From positions 111,192-175,191 of the forward strand of contig NZ_JACHJJ010000017.1 in NCBI RefSeq assembly GCF_014203605.1: a stretch of 64,000 nucleotides of DNA, read 5' to 3'. Shown one piece after another: positions 30,885-56,898 of the stretch. A program made the translations under genes and the position numbers. The notes under the pieces were generated by a model that was not told the origin of the DNA, searched no databases, and worked only from the letters and a program-made list of their open reading frames with translations. Numbering within the stretch: the stretch's first letter is position 1; each line of letters starts with the position of its first letter. This stretch comes from Planomonospora venezuelensis (GTDB taxonomy: Bacteria; Actinomycetota; Actinomycetes; Streptosporangiales; Streptosporangiaceae).

Positions 30885-30895
30885 CGAAGGACCAC

Positions 30896-36100: not shown

Positions 36101-38103
36101 CCGGGCTGCTCCGCTATCCGCCGGACGCCCGGGCGGCGGCCCAGCTCTTCTGGGCCTTCGGGACCGGCGAGGCCGAGCGGGCGTCCTGGACCACCAGGGC
36201 GGTCTCGCTCGCGCGGGCCCGCTCCCGGTTCGGCCGCGTGGCCGCGGTGGACGAGATCCGCCGCGACCTCGGCTCCGCCGTCGCGGCGTTCCTGTCCACC
36301 CTGTCGGCACCGTCCCTACCGTCCGCGCCGTCCGTACCCTCTGCGCCGTCCGTACCCTCTGCGCCGTCCGCGCCGGATGGCGCGGACGTCTCCGGGATCG
36401 CCGGGGAGTACCTGTTCGAGGAGCTCGCGGGGGCTCCTGCCGGATTCGTGACGAGCTCCGGCGCCCGGGGGCTGCTGGAGCGCTTCGGCCGGGCGCTGGG
36501 CGCCGCGCGCGCGGAGTTCGAGGACGACCTGCGCGCCCTGGCCGGCGACCTGCCGGCCCGCAGGCGGCTGGCCGAGGCGTGGCTGGGGGCGTTCGAACGC
36601 GCACCCGAGCTGCCGGAGGCGGTGGCCGTGCTCCTGTGCGAGCTGCCCCGCTACGACTCCTCTGCGGCGCTGGGCGCGACCGCCGAGGGCCTGCTCGGCG
36701 CGCATCCGCGCGTCACCGGCCGGAGCCTGGCGGTGCGGCTGGACGAGTTCCTCGCCAGGACCCGGCGGTTCGGGACCGAGCGCGTGCCCGCCTACCGGGA
36801 CTACCTGCGGCGGCGCAACGAGCTGGTCGCCGCGGAGCGCGAGCGGCTGCGGCTGGAGGAGTACCGGCCGAAGGTGATGAGCGCCTTCGTCCGCAACCAG
36901 CTGCTCGACGAGGTCTACCTGCCGCTCATCGGCGACAACCTGGCCAAGCAGCTGGGCGCGAGCGGCGACGCCAGGCGGACCGACCAGATGGGCCTGCTGC
37001 TGCTCGTCTCCCCGCCCGGCTACGGCAAGACGACCCTGATGGAGTACGTCGCGAGCCGTCTCGGCCTGGTCTTCGTGAAGGTCGACGGTCCGGCCCTCGG
37101 CCGCCTCGTCACCTCGCTGGACCCGGCCGAGGCCCCCGACGCGACCTCGCGCCAGGAGGTCGAGAAGATCAACTTCGCCCTGGAGATGGGCAACAACGTC
37201 CTGCTCTACCTCGACGACATCCAGCACACCTCCCCCGAGCTGCTGCAGAAGTTCATCTCGCTCTGCGACGCCCAGCGCCGGATGGAGGGGGTCAGGGACG
37301 GCCGGAGCCGCACCTACGACCTGCGCGGCAAGCGCTTCGCGGTCTGCATGGCGGGCAACCCGTACACGGAGTCGGGCGGCCGGTTCCGCATCCCCGACAT
37401 GCTCGCCAACCGGGCCGACGTCTGGAACCTCGGCGACGTACTCTCAGGCAGGGAGGAGGTGTTCGCACTGAGTTACGTCGACAACGCGCTCACCGCCAAC
37501 CCCGTCCTCGCCCCGCTCTCCACCCGGGACCGCGACGACGTCCGCCTGCTCGTACGGCTGGCGCAGGGCGACCCCGCCGTCCGCGCCGACCGGCTCTCCC
37601 ACCCCTACTCGCCGGTCGAGCTGGAGCAGGTCCTCGCGGTCCTGCGCAAGCTGCTCCGCGTCCAGCGGGTGGTGCTGGCCGTCAACCAGGCCTACATCGC
37701 CTCGGCCGCCCGGTCCGACGGCTCCCGGACGGAACCGCCGTTCCAGCTCCAGGGGTCCTACCGGAACATGGCCAAGCTCGCCGCGCGGATCGTCCCCGTG
37801 ATGAACGACGCCGAACTGGAGGCGGTCATCGACGACCACTATCTCGCCGAAGCCCAGACCCTCGCCTCCGGCGCCGAGGCCAGCCTCCTGAAGCTGGCCG
37901 AGCTGCGGGGGACGCTCACCGCCGCGCAGGCCGCGCGGTGGGCCGAGGTCAAGGCCGCCTACGTGCGCTCGGCGGCGCTCGGCGGCACGGAGGACGACCC
38001 GGTGACCCGGGCCGTCGGCGCCGTCGGGCTGCTCGCCGACCGGGTCAGCACCGCCATCGGGCAGGCCGCCGACCGGCTCGCGCCGGAAGGGCCGCGCCGG
38101 TGA
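33103..38103 (+). CDS. Giant (1,666-aa) cytoplasmic protein with a C-terminal AAA+/P-loop ATPase module
   Basis: GTGA overlap with the flotillin stop. N-terminal about 450 aa beta-rich, central about 800 aa helical. C-terminal Walker A LLLVSPPGYGKTTLMEY (about 37021-37038), Walker B NNVLLYLDDIQH, sensor-like FAVCMAGNPYTESGG; no TM segments. Confidence 0.75.
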   Translation: MTPAVTLTETTSTTEQPLDAGTYEVLRARLAEQAAELARRAEALNARRLDVFGGTELRLIGTERIRTENNCVPRDIVSIGDLMLFGYNVFIGLKPETAVDDVFSVHRFSRDGDAVRFDTDPGAERLLRHPQFERDFAELYRYYRQTRLLQLRRVEGRLLAVFRTGPQDIRVLRWQIGADGSLAYLDDRGERDHVFPASHDFEWTRTTRDDHVPGRHPHISIQGEVFVETVGGDLTIKVENNTETGEGVYREPVDEPLQSLADAEVLHARVGPLILLRIRPYNETGWRHLVFNTRTRDVVRLDGIGQACRRLPEDQGIIFPGGYHLSTGVSKTFDTDVTGLEFERVVRSANGEDVLYVFHARADGRSLLLPYNVIRKQVATPIPCHGYSLFDDGTLVVFRATSEEPARVHPMQVWQTPYTSDVYAAARPAGTGPLERIGNAELVRGISDCLSVARMVEETAPSASVFEALIAACTRVFDHYHWLGDHDLRGPVTEVRATAEQVLDEFEKVRSLTGQAAEALEAAAGEIASLIRRSHGEPARSAAEWVTRISELRRAQGHLAGLRELRYADTGRIDRLDAELTAELGTAARRATGFLQGADAFTGYRSEVETLAAEAGTAATTAEAAGVAERLAVQARGLEVVIEVVGTLDIADAGARTAVLERIGEVLGGVNRARAALDARRRELLATEGRAAFAAEFALLGQAITGALAMADTPDRCDEQLGRLMLQLENLESRFAEFDDFLTQLGTRREDVYEAFSSRRQALLDERARRADRLAGSADRILLGVRRRAASFGSADEVNTYFASDPMVAKLHAVAGELRELGEAVRAEELEGWIKSARQEAGRALRDRLDLYGDGGGTIRLGRHRFAVNTQAADLTLVPHEDRMVFAVTGTDYRSPVGDPAFEASRPFWSQLLVSESPEVYRGEYLAASILASAEAGAPAADGSPLSLDALHEAAVAEGGLLAIVRRVAESRYDEGYERGVHDHDAAAILEVLLRLHSGAGLLRYPPDARAAAQLFWAFGTGEAERASWTTRAVSLARARSRFGRVAAVDEIRRDLGSAVAAFLSTLSAPSLPSAPSVPSAPSVPSAPSAPDGADVSGIAGEYLFEELAGAPAGFVTSSGARGLLERFGRALGAARAEFEDDLRALAGDLPARRRLAEAWLGAFERAPELPEAVAVLLCELPRYDSSAALGATAEGLLGAHPRVTGRSLAVRLDEFLARTRRFGTERVPAYRDYLRRRNELVAAERERLRLEEYRPKVMSAFVRNQLLDEVYLPLIGDNLAKQLGASGDARRTDQMGLLLLVSPPGYGKTTLMEYVASRLGLVFVKVDGPALGRLVTSLDPAEAPDATSRQEVEKINFALEMGNNVLLYLDDIQHTSPELLQKFISLCDAQRRMEGVRDGRSRTYDLRGKRFAVCMAGNPYTESGGRFRIPDMLANRADVWNLGDVLSGREEVFALSYVDNALTANPVLAPLSTRDRDDVRLLVRLAQGDPAVRADRLSHPYSPVELEQVLAVLRKLLRVQRVVLAVNQAYIASAARSDGSRTEPPFQLQGSYRNMAKLAARIVPVMNDAELEAVIDDHYLAEAQTLASGAEASLLKLAELRGTLTAAQAARWAEVKAAYVRSAALGGTEDDPVTRAVGAVGLLADRVSTAIGQAADRLAPEGPRR

Positions 38104-38915
38104 CGGCCGGACGGGTCGGCGGCGCGGTCCTGTCCGCGATCCTCGCCGGGGCCGTCCTCTCGGGCGCCCCCGGCACCGCCGGGACCGCCCGCGCCGCGGC
38201 GGGCTACCCGGTCGGGAACGCTCCCGTGCTCACCCACAACCCGCTCTACGGCAGGAGCGTCTTCACGCAGGTCGCGTGCGAGGAGCCGGCGGCCGGGAAG
38301 GGCGGCGCGGCCTCCGCCAGGCGCTACACGCTCGCGGTCGTGAAGTGCCTCGACCGGGTCTGGTCCACCGAGCTGCGCAGGCGGAACCTGCCGTTCCGCA
38401 GGCCGGTGGTCAGGTTCGTCTCCACGAGGAGCCGCGTGTGCGGGGAGAAGTGGCCGAAGGAGACGATCGCGCTCTACTGCAGGGCCGAGCGGAGCCTGAA
38501 CTTCCCCGTCGGCTCCGGCCTGCTCGACAACGATTCGGACCTGTTCCTGCTGATCGTGGCCGCCCACGAGTACGCCCACCACGTGCAGAACCTCTCCGGG
38601 ATCATGAAGGGCAACGACGGGCTGGCCTACCGGAACAAGAAGGAGCTGAACGAGCAGGCCCGCAGGCAGGAACTGCAGGCCGAGTGTCTGGCCGGGGCCT
38701 TCGCCGGCTCCGTCTGGACGTCGCTGGCGCGCACCGCGGCCGACTGGCGGCTGCTCCTGAGGAGCCAGAAGGCGACGGGCGACGACTCCGGCGGGCGCGG
38801 CGTCCGCGACCACGGGAAGGGATCGAGCATCGTCTACTGGACGAACCGCGGATTCAGGGCGGCCTCGTCGTCGGCGTGCAACACCTGGACCGCCGCGTCC
38901 GCCCGGGTGTCCTGA
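38100..38915 (+). CDS. YpfJ-type putative neutral zinc metallopeptidase, secreted or membrane-anchored
   Basis: GTGA overlap with the upstream stop. N-terminal signal/anchor (AVLSAILAGAVLSGAPGTAGTARA) and the HExxH-type motif LLIVAAHEYAHHVQN characteristic of the YpfJ family. Confidence 0.7.
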   Translation: MTAGRVGGAVLSAILAGAVLSGAPGTAGTARAAAGYPVGNAPVLTHNPLYGRSVFTQVACEEPAAGKGGAASARRYTLAVVKCLDRVWSTELRRRNLPFRRPVVRFVSTRSRVCGEKWPKETIALYCRAERSLNFPVGSGLLDNDSDLFLLIVAAHEYAHHVQNLSGIMKGNDGLAYRNKKELNEQARRQELQAECLAGAFAGSVWTSLARTAADWRLLLRSQKATGDDSGGRGVRDHGKGSSIVYWTNRGFRAASSSACNTWTAASARVS

Positions 38916-38949
38916 CCGGAGGTCCTCCCGGGCGGCGGCCCGGCCGGGC

Positions 38950-39747
38950 TCAGGGTGTCAGCCGCCGCTCGGTCGCGGCCCCCACGACGAACCTCTCGGC
39001 GCCGGCCGGGTAGGGCCCGAAGTCGGCCACGACGCAGGTGATGTTGTCCGGGCCGCCGCCGCGGTTGGCCAGGTCGATGAGCCGGTGGGCGGTCTCGCCA
39101 GGGTCGTCGACCTCGGTGAGGATGGTGAAGAGGGTCTCCGGGCCGACCACGGCGGTCAGGCCGTCGGAGCAGACGAGGTAGCGGTCGCCCGGCTGGGCCT
39201 CGCGAAGCGTCAGGTCGAGCTCGCCGTCGCCGGTGCCCTCCAGCACCCGCAGGACCATCGAGCGGCGCGGGTGCTCGGCCGCCTGCTCGGGGGTGATCCG
39301 CCCGTCGTCGACCAGCGACTGGACCAGGGTGTGGTCGTGGGTGATCTGGTAGAGGGCGCCGTCGCGCAGCATGTAGGCGCGGGAGTCGCCGACGTGGGCC
39401 AGGGCGAACATGTCGCCGTCCCAGAGCAGGGCGGTGAGGGTGGTGCCCATCCCGCGCAGCGCGGGCTCCTGCTCGCTCATCTCGCGGATCATGCGGTTGA
39501 CGTCTCTGGCCACGGTTTTCAGCGCCGCCTTGAGATCGGCGCCGGTCTCCGGAAGGCTTTCGTCCAGCGCCGCCACGGCGGTGACCGCGAGCGAGCTGGC
39601 GATCTCCCCGCCGGCGTGGCCGCCCATGCCGTCGGCGATGGCGAGCAGGCGCGCGCTCGCGTAGCCGGAGTCCTCGTTGGACTCGCGACGGACTCCGACG
39701 TCGGAGCGGGCGGCGTAGCGCAGGGCCGGTCCTTCGTTTTGTGCCAT
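38950..39747 (-). CDS. PP2C-family Ser/Thr protein phosphatase, paralog 2
   Basis: LLAIADGMGGHAGGEIASS, GMGTTLTALLWDG, AHVGDSRAY, CSDGL, GGPDNITCVV; about 60% identical to 28975..29745. Start at the internal ATG (MAQNEGPALRY). Confidence 0.85.
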   Translation of the reverse strand: MAQNEGPALRYAARSDVGVRRESNEDSGYASARLLAIADGMGGHAGGEIASSLAVTAVAALDESLPETGADLKAALKTVARDVNRMIREMSEQEPALRGMGTTLTALLWDGDMFALAHVGDSRAYMLRDGALYQITHDHTLVQSLVDDGRITPEQAAEHPRRSMVLRVLEGTGDGELDLTLREAQPGDRYLVCSDGLTAVVGPETLFTILTEVDDPGETAHRLIDLANRGGGPDNITCVVADFGPYPAGAERFVVGAATERRLTP

Positions 39748-39831
39748 GAAGGCAGTAAAGCACTGGTTGAAGCACTTCACAAGCAAATCTCTTGTAGACC
39801 ATTTCAGCACAGTCAACTACTGTGGGCCGGT
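39748..39831. promoter_or_regulatory. GC-poor divergent promoter region between the PP2C paralog 2 gene and the HTH-methyltransferase-like gene
   Basis: ..GGCAGTAAAGCACTGGTTGAAGCACTTCACAAGCAAATCTCTTGTAGACCATTTCAGCACAGTCAACTACTG.. Confidence 0.35.
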
Positions 39832-41772
39832 ATGGAGGAGAGCCAGGAGATCACCGTGAACGCGGGCGACATCGCCCGGTTCGCCGATGTGGGCCGGGCG
39901 GCGGTGAGCAACTGGCGCCGCCGCCACGAGGACTTCCCCCAGCCCGTCGGCGGAACCGCCTCCAGCCCGCTCTTCTCCCTGTCCGAGGTCACCGCCTGGC
40001 TGCGGGGCAACGGCAAGTCCTTCGAGGTCTCCCTGGGCGACCTGGTCTGGCAGCGGATGCGGACCACCGTCGACGACCTGCGCCTGGGCGAGCTGGTCGG
40101 CCGGGTCGGCGCCTTCCTGCTGTTCCTGCACCGCGACCCCGGAGGCTGGCGCGAGCACGGCACGCGGTCGTTGTCCGGCGATCCCGGCGCGCGCCCCCTC
40201 GCCGAGCTGGTGGCCGACGCCACGCCCGACCTGCCGGGTCCGCCCGGGTTCCGGCTGGAGGACCGCACGCTGATCCGGCTGGTCGCCCGGCTCGCCGCCG
40301 AGAACGGCCCGCTGGCCGCGTTCGAGTTCCTCTGCGCACGCTACGTGGAGGCCCACTCCCGGCAGCTCTCGGTCACCAGGGACGACGTGGCCGCGCTCAT
40401 GGCCCGGCTGACCGGCGGACACCTCCGGGACGGCGGGGGCCCCGTGCTCGACCCGGCCTGCGGGGTCGGCACCCTGCTCCTGCACGCCGCCGCCCCGCTC
40501 GGCCAGGAGCTCAGCGAGACGAACGCCCTGCTCACCGCGGTACGGCTGCTGCTGCGCGGGACGCGCGCCCGGATCGTGGCCGGCGACTCGCTCCGCGAGG
40601 ACGGCCTGGCCGGCGAGCTCGCCGCCGCGGTGGTCTGCGACCCGCCGTTCAACGAGCGGGCCTGGGGCTACGAGGACCTGGCCGGAGACCCCCGCTGGGA
40701 GTACGGCCTGCCGCCGCGCGGCGAGCCGGAGCTCGCCTGGGTGCAGCACTGCCTGGCCCACGTGCGGCCGGGCGGCCTGGTGGCGATCCTGATGCCCGCC
40801 GCGGCGGCCAGCCGGCGCCCCGGCAAGCGGATCCGGGGCAACCTGCTGCGGGCCGGGGCGCTGCGGGCCGTGATCGCCCTGGCCCCCGGCGGGCCGGACC
40901 TGTGGCTGCTGCGCCGCCCGGACGGCGGTCGGCCCCCGTCGCAGCTGCTGATGGTGGACGCGAGCGAGGACCTGTCGATCGTGGAGTCGGCCTGGCGCGC
41001 CTACACGGCCGACCCCGAGGCCGAACCGCCGGGCGAGAGCCGTACGGTGCGGATCATCGACCTGCTCGACGACGAGGTCGACCTCGCGCCGGGGCGGCAC
41101 CGCCCGCAGCAGGGCGGGATGGACTTCGCCCGCGACCTCACCGGCGCGCTGGACCGCTTCAGGGAGGTCTCGGCCGCGCTGCCGGACGCGCCTCCCGCGC
41201 TGGAGACGCTCGCCGAGCGGCAGGAGCTGCCCACCACGACCGTCGGCGAGCTGGTCAGGGCGGGCCTGGTCACGATCCTGCAGGCCCCGCCCAAGATGAC
41301 CGCCGGCTCAGGACCCGTCCCGGTCCTGACCGCCGAGGACGCCGCCGCGGGCGCCGAGCCCTCGGGAGGGACGGTCTTCGACCCGGCGCTGGTCATGGTC
41401 AGGCCGGACGACGTCGTGGCCACCGCGCTGGGCGCGGTCCGGGTCGTCGAGCACTCCGGCGCGGCGCTCGGGCCGCAGCTCACGCTCTACCGCGTCGACC
41501 CCGAACGGCTCGACCCCCACTTCCTGGCCGGGTTCCTCCGCTCCGCCGAGGCCTCCCGCGTCCATCCCAGCTCCAGCCGGCTCGACGTGCGGCGGGCCCG
41601 CGTGCCGGTGCTGCCCGTGGCCGAGCAGCGGCGGTACGGCGCCGCCTTCCGCGAGCTGACCGCGCTGGAGGACAGATTGCGTGAGACGGCGGCACTGGGA
41701 GAGACCTTGATCCGGCTAGGCTTTGACGGACTGGTCGACGGTCATCTGAGACCGTGCGACCAACGGGTGTAG
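39832..41772 (+). CDS. HTH-domain protein fused to an N6-adenine (gamma-class, HsdM-like) methyltransferase-like domain; orphan, no restriction partner in the window
   Basis: N-terminal HTH (ITVNAGDIARFADVGRAAVSNWRRRH), SAM motif I VLDPACGVGTLLLHAA and motif IV VVCDPPFNERAWGY (DPPF). 646 aa with a long C-terminal domain of unknown function. Confidence 0.65.
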   Translation: MEESQEITVNAGDIARFADVGRAAVSNWRRRHEDFPQPVGGTASSPLFSLSEVTAWLRGNGKSFEVSLGDLVWQRMRTTVDDLRLGELVGRVGAFLLFLHRDPGGWREHGTRSLSGDPGARPLAELVADATPDLPGPPGFRLEDRTLIRLVARLAAENGPLAAFEFLCARYVEAHSRQLSVTRDDVAALMARLTGGHLRDGGGPVLDPACGVGTLLLHAAAPLGQELSETNALLTAVRLLLRGTRARIVAGDSLREDGLAGELAAAVVCDPPFNERAWGYEDLAGDPRWEYGLPPRGEPELAWVQHCLAHVRPGGLVAILMPAAAASRRPGKRIRGNLLRAGALRAVIALAPGGPDLWLLRRPDGGRPPSQLLMVDASEDLSIVESAWRAYTADPEAEPPGESRTVRIIDLLDDEVDLAPGRHRPQQGGMDFARDLTGALDRFREVSAALPDAPPALETLAERQELPTTTVGELVRAGLVTILQAPPKMTAGSGPVPVLTAEDAAAGAEPSGGTVFDPALVMVRPDDVVATALGAVRVVEHSGAALGPQLTLYRVDPERLDPHFLAGFLRSAEASRVHPSSSRLDVRRARVPVLPVAEQRRYGAAFRELTALEDRLRETAALGETLIRLGFDGLVDGHLRPCDQRV

Positions 41773-41797
41773 CGCCCGCGGGTCCGCAGGGAGGGTC

Positions 41798-42691
41798 ATG
41801 GTCATCGGCGACCGCTACGTGCTCGACGACCTTCCCCTGGGGCAGGGCGGGATGGGGGCGGTCTACGCCGGTCACGACAGGCACCTCGACCGCAGGGTGG
41901 CGGTCAAGTTCCTGCGCCTGCTCACCGGGCCCGACGAGGAGCTGAAGCGGCGTTTCCTGCGCGAGGCCCGCATCCTGGCCAAGCTGGAGCACCCCGGCGC
42001 CCCGGTCCTGTACGACTTCGGCACCTTCGAGCAGCGGCTGTTCCAGGTGATGCAGTTCATCGAGGGCGTCACCGTGGCCGACCTGGTCAGCGAGCACGGC
42101 CCGCTCCCGGTCCCGTGGGCCGCCGCGATCGCCGCCCAGGCCTGCGCGGTGCTCTCGGCCGCGCACACGCTCTCCATCTACCACCGCGACCTCAAGCCGA
42201 CCAACCTGATGCTCTGCCCGGACGGCAGCGTCAAGGTCCTGGACTTCGGCCTGGCAATGCTCCGCGAGGCCGACTCCACCCAGTTCACCCGGATCGGCCA
42301 GATCCTCGGCACCCCGTCCTACATGGCCCCCGAGCAGATCCAGCGCGGCCTGGCCGGTCCGCGCAGCGACCTGTACGCGCTGGGCTGCGTGATCCACGAG
42401 ATGCTGACGGGCGAGCAGCTGTTCACCGGCCCCACCGAGTACGTCGTGTTCGAGCGCCAGGTCAAGGAGCTCCCGCCCCCGGTCCCCGGCATCCCCGACG
42501 GCTTGAACCGCCTCCTCGCCGAGCTGCTGGAGAAGGACCCCGACCGGCGCCCGGCCGGCGCCGACGCCCTCTACGAGCGGCTGCAGCCCTTCGCCGTGGA
42601 CCTGCCCATGCTCCCCGGTTTCCTCACCCCGCCCTCGGTCCCCAGTCCCGGCCGGATGTACGCCCGCGTCCTCGGCCGCATCCTGGCCTGA
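41798..42691 (+). CDS. Hanks-type Ser/Thr protein kinase, kinase domain only, cytoplasmic
   Basis: LGQGGMGAVYAG..VAVKFL (G-loop and VAIK-like), catalytic loop HRDLKPTNLM, DFG, APE (SYMAPEQ); 297 aa, no TM or sensor domain; 25 nt after the upstream gene. Confidence 0.85.
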   Translation: MVIGDRYVLDDLPLGQGGMGAVYAGHDRHLDRRVAVKFLRLLTGPDEELKRRFLREARILAKLEHPGAPVLYDFGTFEQRLFQVMQFIEGVTVADLVSEHGPLPVPWAAAIAAQACAVLSAAHTLSIYHRDLKPTNLMLCPDGSVKVLDFGLAMLREADSTQFTRIGQILGTPSYMAPEQIQRGLAGPRSDLYALGCVIHEMLTGEQLFTGPTEYVVFERQVKELPPPVPGIPDGLNRLLAELLEKDPDRRPAGADALYERLQPFAVDLPMLPGFLTPPSVPSPGRMYARVLGRILA

Positions 42692-50172: not shown

Positions 50173-51078
50173 ATGGGACACGACCACGAGGGGCAGCGGG
50201 TCAGCCGCCGCACGGCGCTGGCCGGGATCGGCACGATCGGGCTGGGGGCGATCCTCGCGGCCTGCGGCGGGGAGGCCGGGACGCCGTCGACGGTCACCAC
50301 CTCCACGGGGTCGACCGCCTCGATCACCCCGACGACCGGCGCCGCCTCCGGGCTGGCGGACCTGTTCGCCGGCGCCAACACGTGCGTGCTGACCGAGTCG
50401 ACGACGCAGGGGCCGTACTACTTCGACGCGGACAAGATCCGCAGTGACATCCGCGAGGACCGGGAGGGCGTCCCCCTCCGGGTCGCGATCAAGGTGCAGG
50501 ACAGCGAGACCTGCAGACCCCTGTCCGACGCGGTGGTCGAGATCTGGCACTGCGACGCCGGGGGCGTCTACTCCGGCGCCGAGGCGCTGTCGTCCGGGCA
50601 GGGCGGCCCGGGAGAGGGAGGTCCCGGCCAGGGCACCCCTCCCTCCGGCGGCCCGTCCGGCGGCCCCGGCCGGGGCACTCCCCCTCCCGGCGGCCCCGGC
50701 GAGGGCGGGGGCGACATGGGCGATCTCACCCCGGTCGACGACAAGCGCTACCTGCGCGGTGCGCAGGTCACCGGCACCGATGGGATCGTGCAGTTCGTCA
50801 CGGTCTGGCCGGGCTGGTACCGGGGCCGGACGGTGCACATCCACGCCATGGTGCACGTCGGTGAGGCCCGGGTGCTGACCACGCAGGTCATGTTCGACGA
50901 GGCCCTCAACGGCAAGGTGTTCGAGGCCCAGCCGTACGCCCGGCGCACCGGGCGGGACACCTTCAACGACGGCGACACCATCTACGAGCCGAGCATGCTG
51001 ATGAAGGTCTCCGAGGAGGGCGAGGGCTACGTGGGCGCCATCGTCTTCTCCGCCGACTCCGACCAGGACAAGGCGTGA
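50173..51078 (+). CDS. Intradiol ring-cleavage dioxygenase-family lipoprotein (Tat signal, Gly/Pro-rich linker)
   Basis: MGHDHEGQRVSRRTALAGIGTIGLGAILAACGG (Tat and lipobox), core ..CVLTESTTQGPYYFD..VEIWHCDAGGVYSG..WPGWYRGRTVHIHAMVH.., inserted (GGPG/PPSG)n low-complexity stretch. Confidence 0.7.
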   Translation: MGHDHEGQRVSRRTALAGIGTIGLGAILAACGGEAGTPSTVTTSTGSTASITPTTGAASGLADLFAGANTCVLTESTTQGPYYFDADKIRSDIREDREGVPLRVAIKVQDSETCRPLSDAVVEIWHCDAGGVYSGAEALSSGQGGPGEGGPGQGTPPSGGPSGGPGRGTPPPGGPGEGGGDMGDLTPVDDKRYLRGAQVTGTDGIVQFVTVWPGWYRGRTVHIHAMVHVGEARVLTTQVMFDEALNGKVFEAQPYARRTGRDTFNDGDTIYEPSMLMKVSEEGEGYVGAIVFSADSDQDKA

Positions 51079-51094
51079 CCTCGCGGCGCCCGCC

Positions 51095-52327
51095 TCAGGT
51101 GCCGGTCCGCCGCGGCTCCGGCTCTGCCGGGACCGCTCCGATGTCGCGCACGTCGCGCACGAGCAGCAGGGCGAGGGAGGGCAGCAGCTGGCAGAGGAAG
51201 GCGACCCACAGCGCGTTGTGCAGGCCGAGTCCCGTGTGCAGCGCGGGGACGAGGAGCAGCCCCAGCGGGTAGCCCGCGTAGGAGCCGAGCCACTCGTAGG
51301 AGCTGACCCTGGAGAGCCGGTCCTCCGGGATGTGCCGCTGGAGCGTGGTCTCCCACAGGGTGTTGGAGACCATCAGGGAGACGCCGCCCAGGAAGGCGAC
51401 CGCGGCGACCCCGGCCGCCGGTGCGCCCAGCGCGAGCAGGAGGAGCTGGAGCGGGAAGACCAGGTCCCAGCAGACGGCGGTGCGCAGCGGATGGACCGGC
51501 TTGACGGCCAGGGCGAGCGCGCCGCCGGCGATGGACCCCGCCCCGAAGCAGGCGAGGATCAGCCCCCAGGCGCCCGCGCCGCCGAGGGCCGCGGTGGCGG
51601 CCACGGGGCCGAGCACGTGCAGCGCGGCCTGCCACATGTTGACCAGGGAGGCCGCCCCGATGAAGCTCCAGACCCAGCGGCGCGCCCGGAACTCCCGCCA
51701 CCCCTCGGCCAGGTCGCGCAGCATCCGGGTGGCGGGCAGCGGCTTGGCCGGGAGCCGGAGCAGGCCGAGGAAGGCCGCGCTGGCGGCGAAGGTCGCGGCG
51801 TCCACCGCGATGGCCCAGCCCGCTCCGGCGGTGGCGACGAGCAGGCCGGCCAGGGCCGGTCCCGCGACGTAGGCCGCCGACTGCGCGAACCCGCGCAGCG
51901 CGTTGGCGTCCTGCAGGCTCTCGGTGCCGACCGTCTCCCGTATCAGCCCGCTGACCGCGGGGGTGAACAGCGCGGAGGCGCCGCCGTGGACGAACTGCAG
52001 GGCCGCGAGCATCCACACCTGGGCATGGCCGGTGAGCAGGAGCGCCGCCATGACGCCCTGGCAGGCGAGACGCGCGAGGTCCGCGCCGATCATGACGGCG
52101 GTGCGGGGCAGCCGGTCGGCGAGCACCCCGCCGAGGAGCATGAACGCGATCAGCGGGACCGTGCGCGCGATCAGGACCAGGCCGAGGTCCGCGGCCGAGC
52201 CCGTCAGGCCGAGCACGGCGAACGCGAGCGCCACCGGGGCCATCATGTCGCCGAGCTGGGAGGCGGACTGCCCCAGCAGGAACCAGCGGAAGTTGCGCTC
52301 GCCCAGGACCCGGAGTCTCTGCTTCAT
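51095..52327 (-). CDS. MFS transporter
   Basis: 12-TM pattern and an MFS motif-A-like GGVLADRLPRT; ATGA overlap with the upstream PLP-enzyme stop. Confidence 0.8.
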   Translation of the reverse strand: MKQRLRVLGERNFRWFLLGQSASQLGDMMAPVALAFAVLGLTGSAADLGLVLIARTVPLIAFMLLGGVLADRLPRTAVMIGADLARLACQGVMAALLLTGHAQVWMLAALQFVHGGASALFTPAVSGLIRETVGTESLQDANALRGFAQSAAYVAGPALAGLLVATAGAGWAIAVDAATFAASAAFLGLLRLPAKPLPATRMLRDLAEGWREFRARRWVWSFIGAASLVNMWQAALHVLGPVAATAALGGAGAWGLILACFGAGSIAGGALALAVKPVHPLRTAVCWDLVFPLQLLLLALGAPAAGVAAVAFLGGVSLMVSNTLWETTLQRHIPEDRLSRVSSYEWLGSYAGYPLGLLLVPALHTGLGLHNALWVAFLCQLLPSLALLLVRDVRDIGAVPAEPEPRRTGT

Positions 52328-53292
52328 GCTTCCCCGCGTACGGTCGGCCAGCGTTCCCCGTCGGAGGTGTGCAGTTCCTCAAGGCGCAGCACGAGCGGGC
52401 ACACGTGGGCCGGGAGCAGCCGCAGCAGGCCGCCCGGGTGCGGTGAGGCGGCCGAGGGCGCCTCACCGGGGAACGCCCGCCCGTCGGGGAACGTCGCGGT
52501 CTCCGGGCTCCAGGGCTGGTGCAGCCCCTCGGTCAGCTCCGCCGCCGCGGCGGCGGGGACGTCGATCCCGACGGCGACGTCCTCGAAGCGGCAGACGCCC
52601 AGGCGGGCCAGGCCGGCGTCGCACAGCGCGTAGGCTCCCGCGCCGATCTCGGTGACGCCCGCGACCGTCATGACCGCGCGGGCGGCCGGTGTCCCGCCGA
52701 CGGCCACGACCGGGCACTCCAGGCCCTCGGCCCTGAGCGCCTCGGCCGCCGAGACGGTGCGGGCCGCCGCCGTACGGCCGATCCGGTCGCGGTCCCGGGC
52801 CTCCTCGGGACCGGTGAGGTCCGCGTACCCGCTGACTCCGCCGAGCCGCAGCCCCGCGGTGCAGGCCGCCCGCCGGGCGATGCCCGCGGTGTCGACGCCC
52901 GGTTCCACGACGGCGCGGACGCCGATGACGGCGCCGTGCGCGCGGGCGGCGCGGCCGAGCTCCGCCACGGTGTCCACGTCGTCGACGTGCAGGGAGAGCC
53001 TGCAGGAGCCTGCCACGCGGGCCAGCGCCGTCAGCCGCTCCCGGTCCCGCCAGGGCCAGGCCACCACGATGTCCTCGAACCCGGCCCCGGCGTAGTGCCG
53101 GGCCTCGCCCACCCTGGTGACGGCGATGCCGCCGGCGCCCGCCCGGACCTGGCGTCCGGCGATGCGCGGAGTGCGGTGCCCCTTGACGTGGGCGCGCACC
53201 GCCACGCCCGCGGCGGCGGCCGCGTCGTGCAGCCGCCGGATGTTGGCGTCGAGGCGGGCGACGTCCACATGGGCCGAGATCACCGGGCTCAC
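52324..53292 (-). CDS. PLP-dependent alanine-racemase-fold (DSD1/YBL036c/D-threonine-aldolase-like) enzyme
   Basis: N-terminal TIM-barrel with the PLP-lysine context AVRAHVKGHRT. GTG start overlapping (GTGA) the stop of the SagB-like gene; 322 aa. Confidence 0.6.
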   Translation of the reverse strand: MSPVISAHVDVARLDANIRRLHDAAAAAGVAVRAHVKGHRTPRIAGRQVRAGAGGIAVTRVGEARHYAGAGFEDIVVAWPWRDRERLTALARVAGSCRLSLHVDDVDTVAELGRAARAHGAVIGVRAVVEPGVDTAGIARRAACTAGLRLGGVSGYADLTGPEEARDRDRIGRTAAARTVSAAEALRAEGLECPVVAVGGTPAARAVMTVAGVTEIGAGAYALCDAGLARLGVCRFEDVAVGIDVPAAAAAELTEGLHQPWSPETATFPDGRAFPGEAPSAASPHPGGLLRLLPAHVCPLVLRLEELHTSDGERWPTVRGEA

Positions 53293-54428
53293 CCGAGCCC
53301 GTCCCAGGCGTCCGCGGGCGAGGAGAAGGCCGCCGGACCGCCGTCGGCCATCGCGCGCTGCCGCCGTGCCTCCTCGTCCGTCAGGACCCCCACCCCGGTG
53401 AGACCGAGGAAGACCTCCTCGGTCCAGGAGACGCCCAGCGCCTCCTCGACGAGGGCGTCCCGGGTGGCGGCCGTGAAGAACACGCCGAGGCCCAGGGCCG
53501 TACCGACGAGGTAGGCGTTCTGGCTGACGTGCCCGAGGTCGAGGTGGAGGCTGCCGTAGCTGCGTCCCGTCGGGTACTTCCAGGCCGTGCGCTCCAGGAC
53601 CGCCGTGTACAGCAGCAGTACTCCGGCGTTCGCGACGAAGGTCTGGTCCCCGCACCAGCGCAGCAGCTCGTCTCCGGCGGGCGGCGCCGCGGGGAGCGCT
53701 TCGAGGGCGTGCTCCCCGGGCGCGTAGCGGTAGATTCCCGGCTCGATCCCGGCCACGTTCACGACCAGGGGATAGACCTCGATCGGATGGCACGAGCCGG
53801 CGGAGGGCACGGCCTTCAGGACGGCCGTGCCGAAGTCCCCCAGCCCGACCCGGTGGAGCGGGCGGGCGGTCCAGTGCAGCAGGGCGGCGAGCGCGGCGAG
53901 GGGAACCGGCCGTCCCGGATCCAGGCGGCGTCCGGTACGGCGCCGCCGCAGCGCCTCGGCCAGGTCCATCACCGGCGGGGGCGGCTCGGGCAGCGGGAGG
54001 AGCGTGCCGGTGGCCGGTCTGCAGGGCGGGGGGCGGACCGCCGCGTGGTCGCGGAGCCGGAGCGTGTCCTCCGCGGCCGACAGGTACCTCGTCGTCTCGT
54101 CGGTCCGGGCCGCGAGGTGGTAGTGGGTGGCGGCCGCGCCCCAGCGGCGCCACACGTTCCGCTCCTCCTCCACGCGGTGCTCGGCGGAGCCTTCCACGAC
54201 CAGGATGCGCCTGCCGAGGAGCTGCTCGGCCAGGGTCCGCCGCGGATCGTCGAGGGTGCCGGGGTCGACCCAGTCGCGGAGCCGCTGGAGGAGCTCCCAC
54301 GCCGGCTCCCGCAGCGCCACCTGGCGGCCGTGCAGCGGGATGTCGCAGATGAGCTGGCCGTCCCGCCACTGGAAGAAGACGTACCGGGAAACGCGTAGGC
54401 GCACCTTTTCCGAGGCCCTCCTCTTCAC
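53289..54428 (-). CDS. SagB-type dehydrogenase / nitroreductase-superfamily protein
   Basis: C-terminal nitroreductase-fold signature VLKAVPSAGSCHPIEVYPLVVNVAGIEPGIYRYAP, then ..NAGVLLLYTAVLERTAWKYPTGRSYGSLHLDLGHVSQN..; 379 aa. GTG start as in the ORF track. Confidence 0.65.
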   Translation of the reverse strand: MKRRASEKVRLRVSRYVFFQWRDGQLICDIPLHGRQVALREPAWELLQRLRDWVDPGTLDDPRRTLAEQLLGRRILVVEGSAEHRVEEERNVWRRWGAAATHYHLAARTDETTRYLSAAEDTLRLRDHAAVRPPPCRPATGTLLPLPEPPPPVMDLAEALRRRRTGRRLDPGRPVPLAALAALLHWTARPLHRVGLGDFGTAVLKAVPSAGSCHPIEVYPLVVNVAGIEPGIYRYAPGEHALEALPAAPPAGDELLRWCGDQTFVANAGVLLLYTAVLERTAWKYPTGRSYGSLHLDLGHVSQNAYLVGTALGLGVFFTAATRDALVEEALGVSWTEEVFLGLTGVGVLTDEEARRQRAMADGGPAAFSSPADAWDGLG

Positions 54429-54590
54429 CCGGCCACCGTCCGGACCGGGTGCTCCCCGACGGGGCGAACGGCGGAACCGGGTGGAGAGCGCCGACGGCCT
54501 CCGCCCGGAGTCAGCACCGTCCTGCCCCGACCGGTGAAGAGGGTCCCGGAAGGGATCGGCGGCGGAAACGCCCTCCGGCTGCCGCCGGAC

Positions 54591-54698
54591 CTACGACGGG
54601 GCGACGATCAGAGCGATCTTGCAGCTCTCGGGCATCGCGTAGTCGTCCTCGTACGGAGCCTCGAAAGCCGGGACGTCGTTGTGCTCTGCCACAGGCAC
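54591..54698 (-). CDS. Candidate precursor-peptide sORF (35 aa: VPVAEHNDVPAFEAPYEDDYAMPESCKIALIVAPS)
   Basis: GTG start 6 nt after a perfect AGGAGG, strong GC3 bias, acidic leader-like N-half and hydrophobic Cys-containing C-half; 162 nt upstream of the SagB-type gene on the same strand. An in-frame ATG 18 nt upstream is an alternative start. Confidence 0.4.
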   Translation of the reverse strand: MPVAEHNDVPAFEAPYEDDYAMPESCKIALIVAPS

Positions 54699-54906
54699 GG
54701 TGTGCCTCCTTCGCATCGAGCGCGCAATACTCCCTGAATAATGCCACCCACCCGAACAGAGTCAACGGTAACTATTAGCGGCCAATAACAACACAGCGCA
54801 ACAAGCGCATTTTCCAATAGTCATAGCGGCCATTTCGGTACGCCCGGATCCCGTCCCGCCGCGCACGGCCCGGCGGGGGCCCGCCCGTCCGAGGACCGGG
54901 GCGGGC
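54699..54906 (-). promoter_or_regulatory. GC-depleted island (..GAATAATGCCACCCACCCGAACAGAGTCAACGGTAACTATTAGCGGCCAATAACAACACAGCGCAACAAGCGCATTTTCCAATAGTCATAGCGG..); candidate promoter for the sORF-dehydrogenase-PLP-MFS unit
   Basis: The longest AT-rich stretch in the window, immediately upstream of the sORF. Confidence 0.4.
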
Positions 54907-55677
54907 TCAGGCCTCGCGCACCGGCAGGAGCGCCGGCCGTTTGGCCACGCGGCCGTCGCCCGACGAGCGTCCCCGCAGCCGCCGCACCAGCCACGGTGTC
55001 AGGAACGTCCCGGCCCAGGACAGCTCCGTCCACGCACGCCGCCACGGCGGTGGCGGCGGCAGCGGCGGCAGCGCGTCGCTCCAGGAGGCGTCGCTGCCGG
55101 GCAGTTCCAGAGCATGGGCGACGGCCGCCGCGATCCGGGCGTGGCCCAGCGGCGTGGCGTGGATGCGGTCGGTGCTCCACAACCGGGCGTCCGCGGTGAC
55201 CTCGTAGGCGAAAGCGTCCACGACCAGGACGCCGTGCCGGGCCGCCGCGCCCCTGATCCGCTCGTTGAAGTCCAGCAGGCGCGGCCGCAGGTGCCGGACG
55301 AGCGGCGCGATCCGCGCGATGTCGGGGAAGGTGAAGGCGACCACCCTGGCGCCGGAAGCGGTGAACGCCTCGAACATCGCCTCCAGGTCCGCCGTCACCG
55401 CCTCGACGTCGAACCCGGGCCGGACGAGGTCGTTCATCCCGGCCATGACCGTCACCAGATCCGGCTCCAGGGCGAGCGCCGCCGGCAGCTGACCGGCCCG
55501 GATCTGCCCGGCGCGCTGGCCGCGCACGGCGAGGTTGGCGTAGAGGAGACCGGGATTCCGCACGGCCAGCGACTCGGCCAGCCGGTCCGCCCAGCCCCGG
55601 TAACCCGCCCGGTCGTCACCGTCGTTCAGGCCCTCGGTCTGACTGTCCCCGACCGCCACGTATCTCAGGAACCCCAT
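54907..55677 (-). CDS. SGNH/GDSL-family hydrolase
   Basis: Block I YVAVGDSQTEG and block V DRIHATPLGHARIA; start at the internal ATG (MGFLRY). Confidence 0.75.
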   Translation of the reverse strand: MGFLRYVAVGDSQTEGLNDGDDRAGYRGWADRLAESLAVRNPGLLYANLAVRGQRAGQIRAGQLPAALALEPDLVTVMAGMNDLVRPGFDVEAVTADLEAMFEAFTASGARVVAFTFPDIARIAPLVRHLRPRLLDFNERIRGAAARHGVLVVDAFAYEVTADARLWSTDRIHATPLGHARIAAAVAHALELPGSDASWSDALPPLPPPPPWRRAWTELSWAGTFLTPWLVRRLRGRSSGDGRVAKRPALLPVREA

Positions 55678-55783
55678 CGGCCGCCTCCACCCATCCATAG
55701 TCAATTATATGAATATTACCTGGTATGACTAACGAACGTCCTCCATGACCGCGTCGATCCTGCGAGTGCCCGTCCACGTTCGA

Positions 55784-55805
55784 GATACCATAGGGGGGTA
55801 CCGTG
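55784..55805 (+). promoter_or_regulatory. Candidate CsoR-type operator (GATACCATAGGGGGGTACCGTG; ATACC-N8-GGTAC imperfect inverted repeat) upstream of csoR. A second TACCTGGTA palindrome lies at about 55718-55728
   Basis: Resembles the TACC..GGTA-type palindromes bound by actinobacterial CsoR; located about 40 nt before the csoR start. Confidence 0.3.
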
Positions 55806-55840
55806 TTATGATGGGAGAGGCCGAGCCGAGGGGGAGAGAC

Positions 55841-56116
55841 ATGGCGGGATACACCCACAACAGGCAGGACCACCTGCGGCGGCTGCGCCGCATCGAGGGC
55901 CAGGTGCGCGGCCTGCAGCGGATGGTCGACGAGGACAAGTACTGCATCGACATCCTCACCCAGGTCTCGGCGGCCAACCGGGCCCTGCAGTCCTTCGCCC
56001 TGGCCCTGCTGGAGGAGCACATGGCGCACTGCGTGGCCGACGCCACCGCCAAGGGCGGCGCCGAGGCCAAGGTCAGGGAGGCCGCCGACGCCATCGCCCG
56101 CCTCGTCCGCTCCTGA
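55841..56116 (+). CDS. csoR: CsoR/RcnR-family metal-sensing transcriptional repressor
   Basis: RLRRIEGQVRGLQRMVDEDKYCIDILTQVSAANRALQSFALALLEEHMAHCV: conserved Cys...His...Cys metal ligands in a DUF156 helix bundle; 91 aa. Confidence 0.85.
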   Translation: MAGYTHNRQDHLRRLRRIEGQVRGLQRMVDEDKYCIDILTQVSAANRALQSFALALLEEHMAHCVADATAKGGAEAKVREAADAIARLVRS

Positions 56117-56295
56117 GACGACACCGGGACGCTCCGCGTCCCGGGTTCACCGGCCGGACCGCGGGAGGACCGTACGATGGGGCCGGTAACGGGGCCGGCA
56201 GGCGTGATCGGCCCCGGGGCGCCGGGGGCGGCGGCGCACGCGCCGGGGCGGCTGGACCGCGGGCGGGGACACGGACGAACCGGAGAGAGACCACG

Positions 56296-56898
56296 ATGTT
56301 CACCGATCGATCCACCGTGCGCAGGATCGCGCTGACCGCCGCGGCGGGGGCCGGCGCCCTGACGCTGCTCGCCGCCTGCGGCGGCGGTGATCGGCCGGCG
56401 GCCGACGGCGGTCCCACCGCGAGCGTGCAGCCGTCGGCCTCGTTCAACGACACCGACGTCGCCTTCGCCCAGATGATGATCCCGCACCACCGGCAGGCCG
56501 TGGAGATGGCCGAGCTGGCCGGCACCCGGGCGGCCGACGCGGAGGTCAAGGCGCTGGCGGCGAAGATCAAGGCCGCCCAGGACCCGGAGATCGCCACCAT
56601 GACCGGCTGGCTGGCGGCGTGGGGCAGGCCCGTCGAGCCCGGTGAGGGGCACGGCGGCCACGGCGTGGCGGGCATGACGTCCGAGGACGACATGGCCGCG
56701 CTGGAGCAGGCCAGGGGCGCGGCCTTCGACCGCATGTTCACCGAGCTGATGACCGCCCACCACCAGGGCGCGATCGAGATGGCCAGGACCGAGCAGGCCC
56801 GGGGCGCCAGCCCCGAGGCCAGACAGCTCGCCAAGACCATCGAACTCGCCCAGCAGGCCGAGGTCGATCAGATGAGCCAGCTCATCGACCGCCTCTGA
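56296..56898 (+). CDS. DUF305-family lipoprotein, usually copper-associated
   Basis: Lipobox LTLLAACGG and duplicated DUF305 helices (DVAFAQMMIPHHRQAVEMAE.. and FDRMFTELMTAHHQGAIEMAR..). Confidence 0.75.
   Translation: MFTDRSTVRRIALTAAAGAGALTLLAACGGGDRPAADGGPTASVQPSASFNDTDVAFAQMMIPHHRQAVEMAELAGTRAADAEVKALAAKIKAAQDPEIATMTGWLAAWGRPVEPGEGHGGHGVAGMTSEDDMAALEQARGAAFDRMFTELMTAHHQGAIEMARTEQARGASPEARQLAKTIELAQQAEVDQMSQLIDRL

Follow-up and report, generated by a model that had tools for sequence, protein, structure and literature searches.

In the present study, a minus-strand gene cassette was analysed in a 64-kb stretch of actinomycete DNA (64,000 nucleotides of Planomonospora venezuelensis, contig NZ_JACHJJ010000017.1, positions 111,192 to 175,191; hereafter the window). 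The cassette encodes a peptide of 35 amino acids (aa), a flavin mononucleotide (FMN) dehydrogenase, an enzyme dependent on pyridoxal 5'-phosphate (PLP) and a pump of the major facilitator superfamily (MFS). We consider it probable, though by no means assured, that these genes form a biosynthetic operon for a modified peptide belonging to an uncharacterised family of peptides that are made ribosomally and modified post-translationally (RiPPs), the product being a prediction. A non-canonical RiPP-like cluster had been suggested at this place in an earlier reading of the letters alone (the sequence-only reading), and this suggestion is now supported by the synteny of the small open reading frame (sORF) that encodes the peptide. 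Moreover, modification of the peptide is supported because the dehydrogenase carries, in its structure model, the fold of a RiPP recognition element (RRE), and because its nearest relatives sit with maturases of the ATP-grasp type and of the multinuclear non-haem iron-dependent oxidative (MNIO) type. No description of the cassette or of the peptide family was found in the literature searched, in Pfam or in NCBIfam.

A conserved peptide gene precedes the dehydrogenase

The sORF of the window begins with a GTG (54698-54696) and ends with a stop codon at 54593-54591, and an in-frame alternative ATG at 54716 would give a peptide of 41 aa; both products are on record as hypothetical proteins of P. 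venezuelensis. The perfect AGGAGG that the sequence-only reading had described 6 nt before the GTG of this 35-codon frame was found in its place (Table 1). That reading had also proposed to check whether the sORF is conserved and syntenic, and this proved to be the case. A hidden Markov model (HMM) was trained on 16 peptides from other loci, with the window peptide left out, and searched against 10,394 six-frame segments representing all loci and the window. The window sORF was recovered with E = 1.4e-4 as the sole match in the 64 kb, and 31 upstream peptides were matched at E = 1e-10 to 1e-18 (the L041 peptide was added after the main search, and the L008 locus is truncated). A homologous peptide gene therefore stands directly 5' of the dehydrogenase, on the same strand, in 31 of the 33 informative loci. 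When the upstream open reading frames (ORFs) were read locus by locus, nearly every locus showed a small gene at a distance of 3-113 nt 5' of the dehydrogenase, and the spacer varies in length over this range; in the window it is GC-rich and measures 160-190 nt. A tblastn search with the window peptide returned a single weak match (L002, E = 9e-4) and would by itself wrongly imply non-conservation, because the family is seen only through the upstream ORFs and the HMM.

The alignment of the peptides is free of gaps from A-F-E/D to C-x-x-P, and the spacing F-8-Y-6-C is fixed. Among 15 aligned peptides Tyr20 and Cys26 are invariant, and Phe12, the acidic pair before the Tyr (D18-D19 in the window) and Pro29 are nearly so, the Phe12 position accepting Leu and Ile. 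A second Cys, which is not conserved, occurs in the tail of five of the 15 peptides, and none of the Ser or Thr positions is invariant. The sequence-only reading had taken the C-terminus of the peptide, with its Cys and terminal Ser, as a plausible core; the invariance of Cys26 agrees with this in part, but neither the Ser nor the tail is conserved. The orthologous peptides are 26-45 aa long with a net charge of -3 to -10, their genes are preceded by purine-rich Shine-Dalgarno-like sites of the GGAG type, and no Pfam or NCBIfam model covers them. In the 11 Micromonospora loci, of whose peptides MTEQVEAFEPVASDDYDQELTCLEPPVEA is an example, seven codons vary between residues 6 and 27, and at six of these the differences are synonymous only; the peptide sequence is therefore under selection.

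Two further features were observed near the peptide genes of other hosts. In Streptacidiphilus, extra paralogous sORFs lie 5' of the true precursor (L006 5625-5759 and L016 5344-5677, e.g. MSEIRNRRELELGIEIGIDGIEETRIERIEGDLGIDGIESRIIRSI); they keep a repetitive N-terminal region with 'IEIGID' and have no Y...C core, and L016 holds two identical copies. In Micromonospora, a non-coding motif, TGTTCAC-A/T-GTGGAC...CTGATACGGT, is common to the 11 loci 40-90 nt 5' of the peptide start (e.g. L011 5815-5865). This motif may be a promoter or an operator, and it is not recognisable in the window.

The dehydrogenase combines a predicted RRE with a SagB-type domain

The dehydrogenase comprises 379 aa, or 371 aa if translation starts at the second GTG (54404, 'VRLRVS'), which is possible because this start matches the MRLRVS of the orthologues. 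The SagB-type/nitroreductase signature noted in the sequence-only reading was borne out by matches to PF00881 (5e-18) and, above its cut-off of 78.4, to the SagB family TIGR03605 (114 bits). The protein also matched TIGR04511 (SagB_rel_DH_2, putative peptide maturation dehydrogenase) over nearly its full length with 172 bits, below the cut-off of 240, and two sister-clade proteins fall under the same cut-off (L042, 185; P0099, 172). Across 22 orthologues with 46-61% identity to the window protein, the motifs RRxxR (R163-R164-x-x-R167) and W283-K284-Y285 are invariant, and the latter aligns with the WKY of ThcOx. The Lys-Tyr pair has been described as the catalytic base system of McbC and of other dehydrogenases of thiazole/oxazole-modified microcins (TOMMs) (PMC6395948, PMC10557607). 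Judged from the alignment, both the FMN-binding arginines and this catalytic pair are intact in the window enzyme.

An AlphaFold (AF2) model of the dehydrogenase reached a predicted local distance difference test score of 84.7, and the nearest full-length folds were ThcOx, the best match in the PDB, and BmdC. In fold comparison of the model, the N-terminal domain has the RRE fold, a beta3-alpha3 winged helix; a profile of this domain gave no match among PDB sequences, and the RRE was revealed by the fold comparison only. As modelled, the dehydrogenase is an RRE fused to an FMN dehydrogenase, the fold alone being no proof of peptide binding.

The C-terminal tail of the dehydrogenase (53289-53400) is conserved as E-x-x-R-Q-x-x-M-x-x-G-x-x-x-F-S-F-x-x-D-x-W-D-G and is modelled with low confidence; docking of the coupled PLP enzyme is a possible role. 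Database records of the gene are inconsistent: the nr entry that is 100% identical spans only the C-terminal 226 aa and omits the RRE domain, and several orthologues, P0035 and P0041 among them, are annotated from an internal Met ('MCDDP' and 'MVCDDP').

The PLP enzyme and the exporter

The second enzyme of the cassette matched PF01168 (Ala_racemase_N) with 3e-10, and its relatives in the PDB are 3WQC, 4V15, 6QKB and 3ANU (99-65 bits). The best solved relative is D-threo-3-hydroxyaspartate dehydratase (99 bits), followed by D-threonine aldolases, D-3-hydroxyaspartate aldolase and D-serine dehydratase. The segment 'RAHVKGHR' of the window protein aligns with 'RPHVKTSK' of 3WQG, and among 17 orthologues the lysine motif R-x-H-V/I-K-x-HR, a GGT and a C-terminal H-[VIL]-C are invariant. 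H-x-C is what we take to be the Zn/metal site of D-Ser dehydratase and D-threo-3-hydroxyaspartate dehydratase, the aldolases having H-x-D. By these sequence comparisons, the protein is assigned to the metal-dependent D-Ser dehydratase/D-Thr aldolase/D-threo-3-hydroxyaspartate dehydratase family. The alanine-racemase-fold PLP enzyme of the sequence-only reading was therefore right as to the fold, but the relatives are dehydratases and aldolases, and the protein is not a racemase proper. With the lysine motif and the C-terminal H-x-C the window enzyme resembles this group; it differs in being about 60 aa shorter, and in sitting in a predicted peptide-modifying operon. The H-[VIL]-C is present near its C-terminus, and the C-terminal domain PF14031 was not detected by Pfam. 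Against the BhcC family the protein scored 93 bits (cut-off 690). We know of no fold-type III member of the D-Ser dehydratase family in RiPP maturation.

The predicted exporter matched PF05977 (1.4e-28), TIGR00900 (202 bits) and also PF07690, in agreement with the MFS transporter that had been read from the sequence behind an ATGA overlap. It is kept downstream in the orthologous loci and also in two metagenomic loci of the sister clade (L042 and L043).

The four-gene unit is shared by several actinomycete genera

A contig scan with the window dehydrogenase alone gave no match, and an alignment-based scan was needed, which covered each GTDB species by one genome and returned 35 loci. In 28 of the 35 loci, PLP and MFS orthologues come after the dehydrogenase, two loci show a rearranged order, and five further assemblies share the same gene arrangement; synteny of the three genes was recorded for L001-L026, L030, L034, L035 and L036-L041. 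The hosts are Streptomyces, Micromonospora, Streptacidiphilus, Sphaerimonospora, Phytohabitans, Planomonospora and other Streptosporangiaceae. The flanking genes differ between genera, and the conserved unit is therefore the peptide, the dehydrogenase, the PLP enzyme and the MFS pump. Clustering of the ORFs over all fetched loci found no further gene family common across genera. A methyltransferase was considered as a member of the cassette and rejected, as it is specific to Micromonospora, where it is appended.

Some lineages carry additional genes next to the unit. In a six-gene version (L003, L004, L005, L008, L022, L025, L034, L039, L040 and L041), the MFS gene is followed 3', on the same strand, by a Cys/Met-metabolism PLP enzyme (PF01053, 1e-119) and a double-OsmC protein of about 390 aa, neither of which is present in the window. 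Genes of nonribosomal peptide synthetases (NRPSs), comprising modules of condensation (C), adenylation (A) and peptidyl carrier protein (PCP) domains, thioesterase (TE), MbtH and SbnA/SbnB-like proteins, were found no more than 6 kb from the cassette in about 13 loci, in at least six arrangements. They lie upstream in L003, L005, L007, L009, L010, L025 and L036, and NRPS genes were also seen near L006, L016, L019, L022, L035 and L041. In seven Streptomyces loci, an NRPS gene with a PCP domain at its end precedes the peptide gene by 200-400 nt.

Relatives of the dehydrogenase in RiPP contexts

A profile search of 1.84 billion representative proteins returned 1,371 relatives of the dehydrogenase at E <= 1e-30, mostly of 350-400 aa and matched over their full length. 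In the next tier below the orthologues, the operon runs from a small peptide through an ATP-grasp enzyme and the RRE-dehydrogenase to an MFS_3 pump. The ATP-grasp of this sister clade is of the ribosomal-peptide-maturase type (TIGR04187, 179 bits, below cut-off), and its peptides are exemplified by MEEIAKLVLAGSAEGGALGEYAREYAGVSPNHDKKDN and ...SAFDAYVSDYQARELVVDKIN; those of L027, L028, L031 and L042 are short and acidic, have the motif A-[LF]-x...[ED]-Y and contain no Cys. Loci joining an ATP-grasp and a SagB-like enzyme have been reported as 'branch 6' of a graspetide survey, as a prediction only (PMC8939145). They resemble the window in that L042 has an RRE-SagB-like dehydrogenase with WKY and a TIGR04511 score below cut-off, and in that L042 and L043 carry the MFS_3 pump directly 3'. 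In contrast, the ATP-grasp maturase there replaces the PLP enzyme of the window, and the peptides have Lys/Asp-rich tails without the invariant Cys.

Relatives of about 650 aa are fusions of an MNIO domain and a nitroreductase. The window dehydrogenase shares 35% identity with one of them, P0099, over the RRE and the catalytic domain (BLASTP E = 1e-49). The fusions P0099, P0178 and P0140 share about 47-54% identity with PosD in the best-aligned nitroreductase segment, a value that is approximate, since the PosD sequence was taken from supplementary DNA damaged by optical character recognition. On the family profile, the MNIO fusion scored 271 bits, ThcOx 95, McbC 47 and BmdC 47-48. In PflD, the Phe of an A-I-F-D motif is turned into Z-dehydrophenylalanine by the nitroreductase domain without a YcaO (PMC12636437, a 2025 preprint). 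According to the same report, flavin nitroreductases in RiPP clusters usually partner a YcaO, those without one are 'rare and functionally uncharacterized', and other dehydro-amino acids may be made (PMC12636437). PflD and PosD, both from Pseudomonas, are like the window enzyme in having a SagB-type nitroreductase domain and no YcaO, and the fusions homologous to them (P0099, P0178 and P0140) align with the window protein over the RRE-like and catalytic regions. In addition, the target of PflD is an aromatic residue beside an acidic one (A-I-F-D), and the window family has A-F-E/D and D/E-Y. The two systems differ in that the window enzyme, which is known from sequence alone, has no MNIO domain (no match to PF05114), its cassette has no HEXXH or GNAT partner, and its precursor is short and acidic, whereas that of the Pseudomonas system is NHLP-like and 85-100 aa long. 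Moreover, a fold-type III PLP partner and actinomycete hosts are found only on the side of the window.

Comparison with characterised flavoenzymes places the window enzyme between several known systems. With SagB, McbC and ThcOx it shares the TIGR03605 domain, the FMN-binding arginines and the Lys-Tyr motif, and ThcOx is its best solved structural match, RRE-like N-terminus included; however, the identity to ThcOx is low (21-22%), there is no YcaO or E1-like partner, and the peptide has a single conserved Cys and no core rich in Cys, Ser or Thr. BmdC, the trans-oxidase of the bacillamide NRPS, likewise combines RRE-like and FMN oxidase domains and forms a dimer with a wrapping linker (PMC8795117). 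The substrate of BmdC is a thiazoline carried on a PCP, and the RRE of BmdC is a relic, whereas here the peptide gene is conserved and most loci have no NRPS. AlbAB, a nitroreductase-fold flavoenzyme with a weak fold match to the window enzyme, dehydrogenates the side chains of Phe, Tyr and Leu between C-alpha and C-beta (PMC10557607). In contrast to the window enzyme, AlbAB acts on diketopiperazines, needs AlbB, forms filaments and has no RRE.

A third, distant SagB-like branch was observed in Kutzneria (33-38% identity; L029 5834-6001, L032 and L033 at about 5940-6030). Its upstream peptides begin MDEFVDT..., e.g. MDEFVDTAAVLRPVAGCYDDPVDPWGAPVEFDAA, and in L032 and L033 two long upstream ORFs resemble ABC-type transporters. 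Near the loci of this branch, neither a PLP gene nor an ATP-grasp gene was noticed.

Proposed mechanism

We propose the following scheme for the cassette. The peptide would be bound by the RRE through its hydrophobic-acidic A-F-E/D segment, which would join the domain as an extra beta-strand; a comparable hydrophobic-acidic motif (FNLD) is bound by RREs of the NisB type. The fixed spacing would then bring the downstream Tyr, or alternatively the Phe, to the FMN. There, Tyr285 and Lys284 would take the C-alpha proton, the C-beta hydride would pass to FMN, and an alpha,beta-dehydro-aromatic residue would be formed. The sequence-only reading had set the SagB-type enzyme in the context of azoline oxidation. 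The TIGR03605 match and the WKY motif are in keeping with that context, but by analogy with PflD a dehydro-amino acid is a likelier product of the flavoenzyme than an azole. By the same analogy, the dehydrogenated residue is most likely Tyr20, which would become dehydro-Tyr, with Phe12 as the alternative. The Tyr is favoured because it is the only residue invariant in the peptides of both the PLP branch and the ATP-grasp branch (four peptides), the dehydrogenase being the enzyme that the branches share, and because Leu and Ile are also accepted at the Phe position, as would be expected of a recognition anchor.

The Cys is invariant only in the PLP branch, and Cys26 and the PLP enzyme therefore probably belong together. 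The thiol of Cys26 might add to the dehydro residue to give a seven-residue thioether ring, or it might capture a PLP-bound aminoacrylate or an aldol-type electrophile derived from a beta-hydroxy amino acid. In a further option, Cys26 would be oxidised and aldol chemistry would follow. This PLP step, which is drawn by analogy, is the least certain part of the mechanism. The MFS pump would export the product, and hydrolysis at the dehydro residue might release the leader, although the latter is speculation. If the whole scheme holds, the cassette would define a new RiPP class, in which an RRE-nitroreductase makes dehydro-Tyr without a YcaO or an MNIO enzyme and a metal-dependent fold-type III PLP enzyme then acts on the peptide; we put this forward tentatively, as possible but rather doubtful.

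Alternative explanations

Several observations weigh against a modified-peptide operon. The window peptide is the most divergent member of its family (20.7 bits) and has Ala at the nearly invariant Pro29 position, and the choice of Tyr over Phe or Cys comes from invariance and analogy alone. BmdC's RRE-like domain is described as vestigial, and those of the dehydrogenases of cyanobactins, linear peptides that contain azol(in)es (LAPs) and thiopeptides are possibly likewise (PMC8795117, PMC7470986). In L022 (Streptomyces sp. NPDC057697, 2757-5952) 13 kb of sequence hold no peptide gene; the PLP gene has moved upstream, and the dehydrogenase is preceded by two inserted ORFs, which resemble, as judged from their translations rather than by a family search, a class I/II aminotransferase and an FMN-dependent alpha-hydroxy-acid oxidase. 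Enzymes of these two types handle aromatic alpha-keto and alpha-hydroxy acids. In L040 (Streptomyces camelliae, 7888-7950) only a remnant of 20 aa, MTSYDGVEQTRLVPTTIWRD, is left, with the leader gone and the Cys replaced by Arg, and the remainder of the six-gene cassette is intact; the remnant may represent a precursor gene in decay. No protease is encoded in the cassette. In addition, the PLP family is to our knowledge known only from free D-beta-hydroxy amino acids, a free alpha-amine being needed, and a role on a peptide would be unprecedented.

The absence of a protease, the situation in L022 and the decay of the gene in L040 all favour a small-molecule or scaffold pathway, in which an amino-acid-derived metabolite would be exported and the peptide would be a pearlin-like carrier or scaffold, a regulator or a chaperone. 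This pathway is also favoured by the solved PLP relatives, which all act on free D-Ser, D-Thr or D-3-hydroxyaspartate, by the ten loci in which the PF01053 enzyme and the double-OsmC protein are added 3' of the pump, and by the EntS/Tet(V)-like type of the pump, which is typical for small molecules. It nevertheless appears unlikely, although it is the strongest of the alternatives, in view of a peptide that is kept, with its invariant residues and its fixed spacing, in 31 of the 33 informative loci, of an RRE domain that the dehydrogenase retains well folded in its model, and of the sister clades, which use dedicated ribosomal-peptide maturases. The sequence-only reading had held that a known small-molecule pathway with the same neighbours would speak against a RiPP, and no such pathway came to light in the literature searched. 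A cryptic azole pathway of the TOMM/LAP type is clearly less probable. Here a YcaO acting in trans would turn the invariant Cys into a thiazoline, which the SagB-type enzyme would oxidise to a thiazole, and the TIGR03605 score above cut-off, the Lys-Tyr azoline-oxidase motif, the invariant Cys and the usual partnership of RiPP flavin nitroreductases with YcaO (PMC12636437) would fit. However, Pfam scans of the 38 window proteins, with a few inter-gene gaps left unscanned, found no YcaO, ThiF/E1-like or LanB/C/M protein, as the sequence-only reading had stated for YcaO, E1-like and lanthipeptide enzymes. None was found either among the called genes of L036, L038, L039, L040 and L041 (8-10 kb flanks), and the ORF clustering gave no further candidate family common across genera. 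Moreover, the family profile is far nearer to the MNIO-nitroreductase fusions than to ThcOx or McbC, and the ATP-grasp-branch peptides (L027, L028, L031 and L042) have no Cys.

The same enzymes might instead be accessory to an NRPS, with the dehydrogenase as a BmdC-like trans-oxidase for a carrier-bound intermediate, the PLP enzyme as the source of a building block, and both RRE and sORF as relics. Genes for C, A, PCP, TE and MbtH within 6 kb of about 13 loci point in this direction, and BmdC, which is among the fold matches, has the same architecture of an RRE-like and an oxidase domain with a non-functional RRE (PMC8795117). Against this stand the absence of any NRPS gene from the window and from the loci of Micromonospora (n=11), Sphaerimonospora, S. 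camelliae and Streptomyces sp. R35, the low score of BmdC on the family profile (47-48 bits), and the consideration that a relic peptide gene would not hold invariant residues under purifying selection; we rate this explanation as improbable, marginally more so than the azole pathway. Less credible still is the idea that the sORF encodes no substrate and either occurs by chance or serves as an upstream ORF in regulation. Its short length, its annotation as a hypothetical protein only and the abundance of spurious ORFs in high-GC genomes would allow such a view, but the HMM match is specific, the substitutions are mostly synonymous, a Shine-Dalgarno site and a promoter-like site precede the gene, its position and spacing are kept across genera, and no runs of regulatory codons are present. 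A biosynthetic operon for a modified peptide therefore remains the explanation that we prefer.

Layout of the locus and neighbouring genes

All features of the cassette lie on the minus strand, in the order of the AT-rich island with the promoter-like site, the Shine-Dalgarno site, the sORF, the spacer, the dehydrogenase, the PLP enzyme and the MFS pump (Table 1). On re-reading of the sequence, the strand, the coordinates and the GTGA and ATGA overlaps that had been reported earlier were all correct. The start of the PLP gene overlaps the end of the dehydrogenase gene (GTGA), the start of the MFS gene overlaps the end of the PLP gene (ATGA), and, as read from these overlaps, each gene appears translationally coupled to the one before it.

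Table 1. Coordinates of the cassette features in the window
Feature	Position	Strand	Basis
Sigma-70-like promoter TTGACT-16-CATTAT, TG-extended (predicted)	54738..54765	-	inside AT-rich island 54699-54906
Shine-Dalgarno site AGGAGG, 6 nt 5' of the sORF GTG	54705..54710	-	read from sequence
Precursor-like peptide gene, 35 aa, VPVAEHNDVPAFEAPYEDDYAMPESCKIALIVAPS	54591..54698	-	family HMM match, alignment
GC-rich hairpin-capable segment directly 3' of the sORF stop	54557..54589	-	fold z = -1.95, weak significance
RRE-fused SagB/ThcOx-type FMN dehydrogenase (predicted), 379 aa	53289..54428	-	PF00881, TIGR03605, TIGR04511, AF2 model
N-terminal RRE domain (predicted), residues ~10-100	54129..54401	-	fold comparison
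Nitroreductase/SagB catalytic domain, residues ~160-347	53388..53951	-	invariant R163-R164-x-x-R167, W283-K284-Y285
Fold-type III PLP enzyme, 322 aa	52324..53292	-	PF01168, PDB relatives
MFS_3 (EntS/Tet(V)-like) exporter, 410 aa	51095..52327	-	PF05977, PF07690, TIGR00900

The promoter-like character that the sequence-only reading had assigned to the AT-rich island was confirmed by its base composition and by its content. The island has 63.5% GC, and its part at 54720-54850 only 52%, compared with 73% for the window, and it ranks among the lowest-GC stretches of the 64 kb. The site TTGACT-16-CATTAT (54765-54738) is the only sigma-70-like site in 50900-55100, where shuffled sequences lead one to expect 0. 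The hairpin, which the same reading had placed about 160 nt downstream of the sORF, in fact follows directly after the stop codon. The fold of the spacer (54425-54600) is only marginally above that of shuffled sequences (z = -1.95), and no terminator-like site or T-tract was seen in the spacer after the sORF, so that a terminator or attenuator at this place found weak support; the segment may be a processing or attenuation element. A riboswitch in the leader or spacer was rejected, the Rfam scan having given only sul1 below threshold (18.9 vs 36.2 bits).

Upstream of the cassette, at 54907-55704 (minus strand) and 55745-56898 (plus strand), lie a 123-aa ORF that resembles, from its translation, a CsoR-like copper-sensing repressor, a DUF305 protein and a GDSL lipase. 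A link of the cassette to copper through the CsoR-like and DUF305 neighbours was rejected, as these are not among the gene families common to the other loci, and all three neighbours are probably unrelated to the cassette. Elsewhere in the window, a run of large genes on the plus strand (30270-42691) has the appearance of a MADS/BREX-like, methylation-associated phage-defence island. Its members include proteins of 204 aa and 736 aa without a Pfam match, a 1666-aa ATPase (DUF3686/DUF7902/AAA_5), an 895-aa N6 DNA methylase (PADLOC MTase_I 294 bits, mad2 55 bits) and a 297-aa Ser/Thr kinase (PADLOC PD-T4-6 312 bits, mad6 216 bits).

Significance

What is new in this cassette is the combination of a YcaO-independent RRE-nitroreductase, as predicted here, with a PLP enzyme of fold type III and a minimal Tyr/Cys precursor. 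A single worked example of a YcaO-independent RiPP nitroreductase has been offered (PMC12636437), and the cassette would represent a second, simpler and widespread architecture. It consists of four genes only, with a precursor of 26-45 aa and two invariant residues, and this small size makes it directly testable. If the proposed scheme is true, peptide maturation would for the first time be seen to use the fold-type III PLP fold, and a novel cross-link or appendage would be present in the product. The scheme could then bring to light novel chemistry of dehydro-amino acids and of C-S or C-C bonds, as well as an RRE recognition motif and a natural-product family that are both new. Moreover, the pair of RRE-nitroreductase and MFS_3 pump behaves as a mobile module, which recombines with ATP-grasp, MNIO or PLP enzymes and which provides a useful handle for genome mining.

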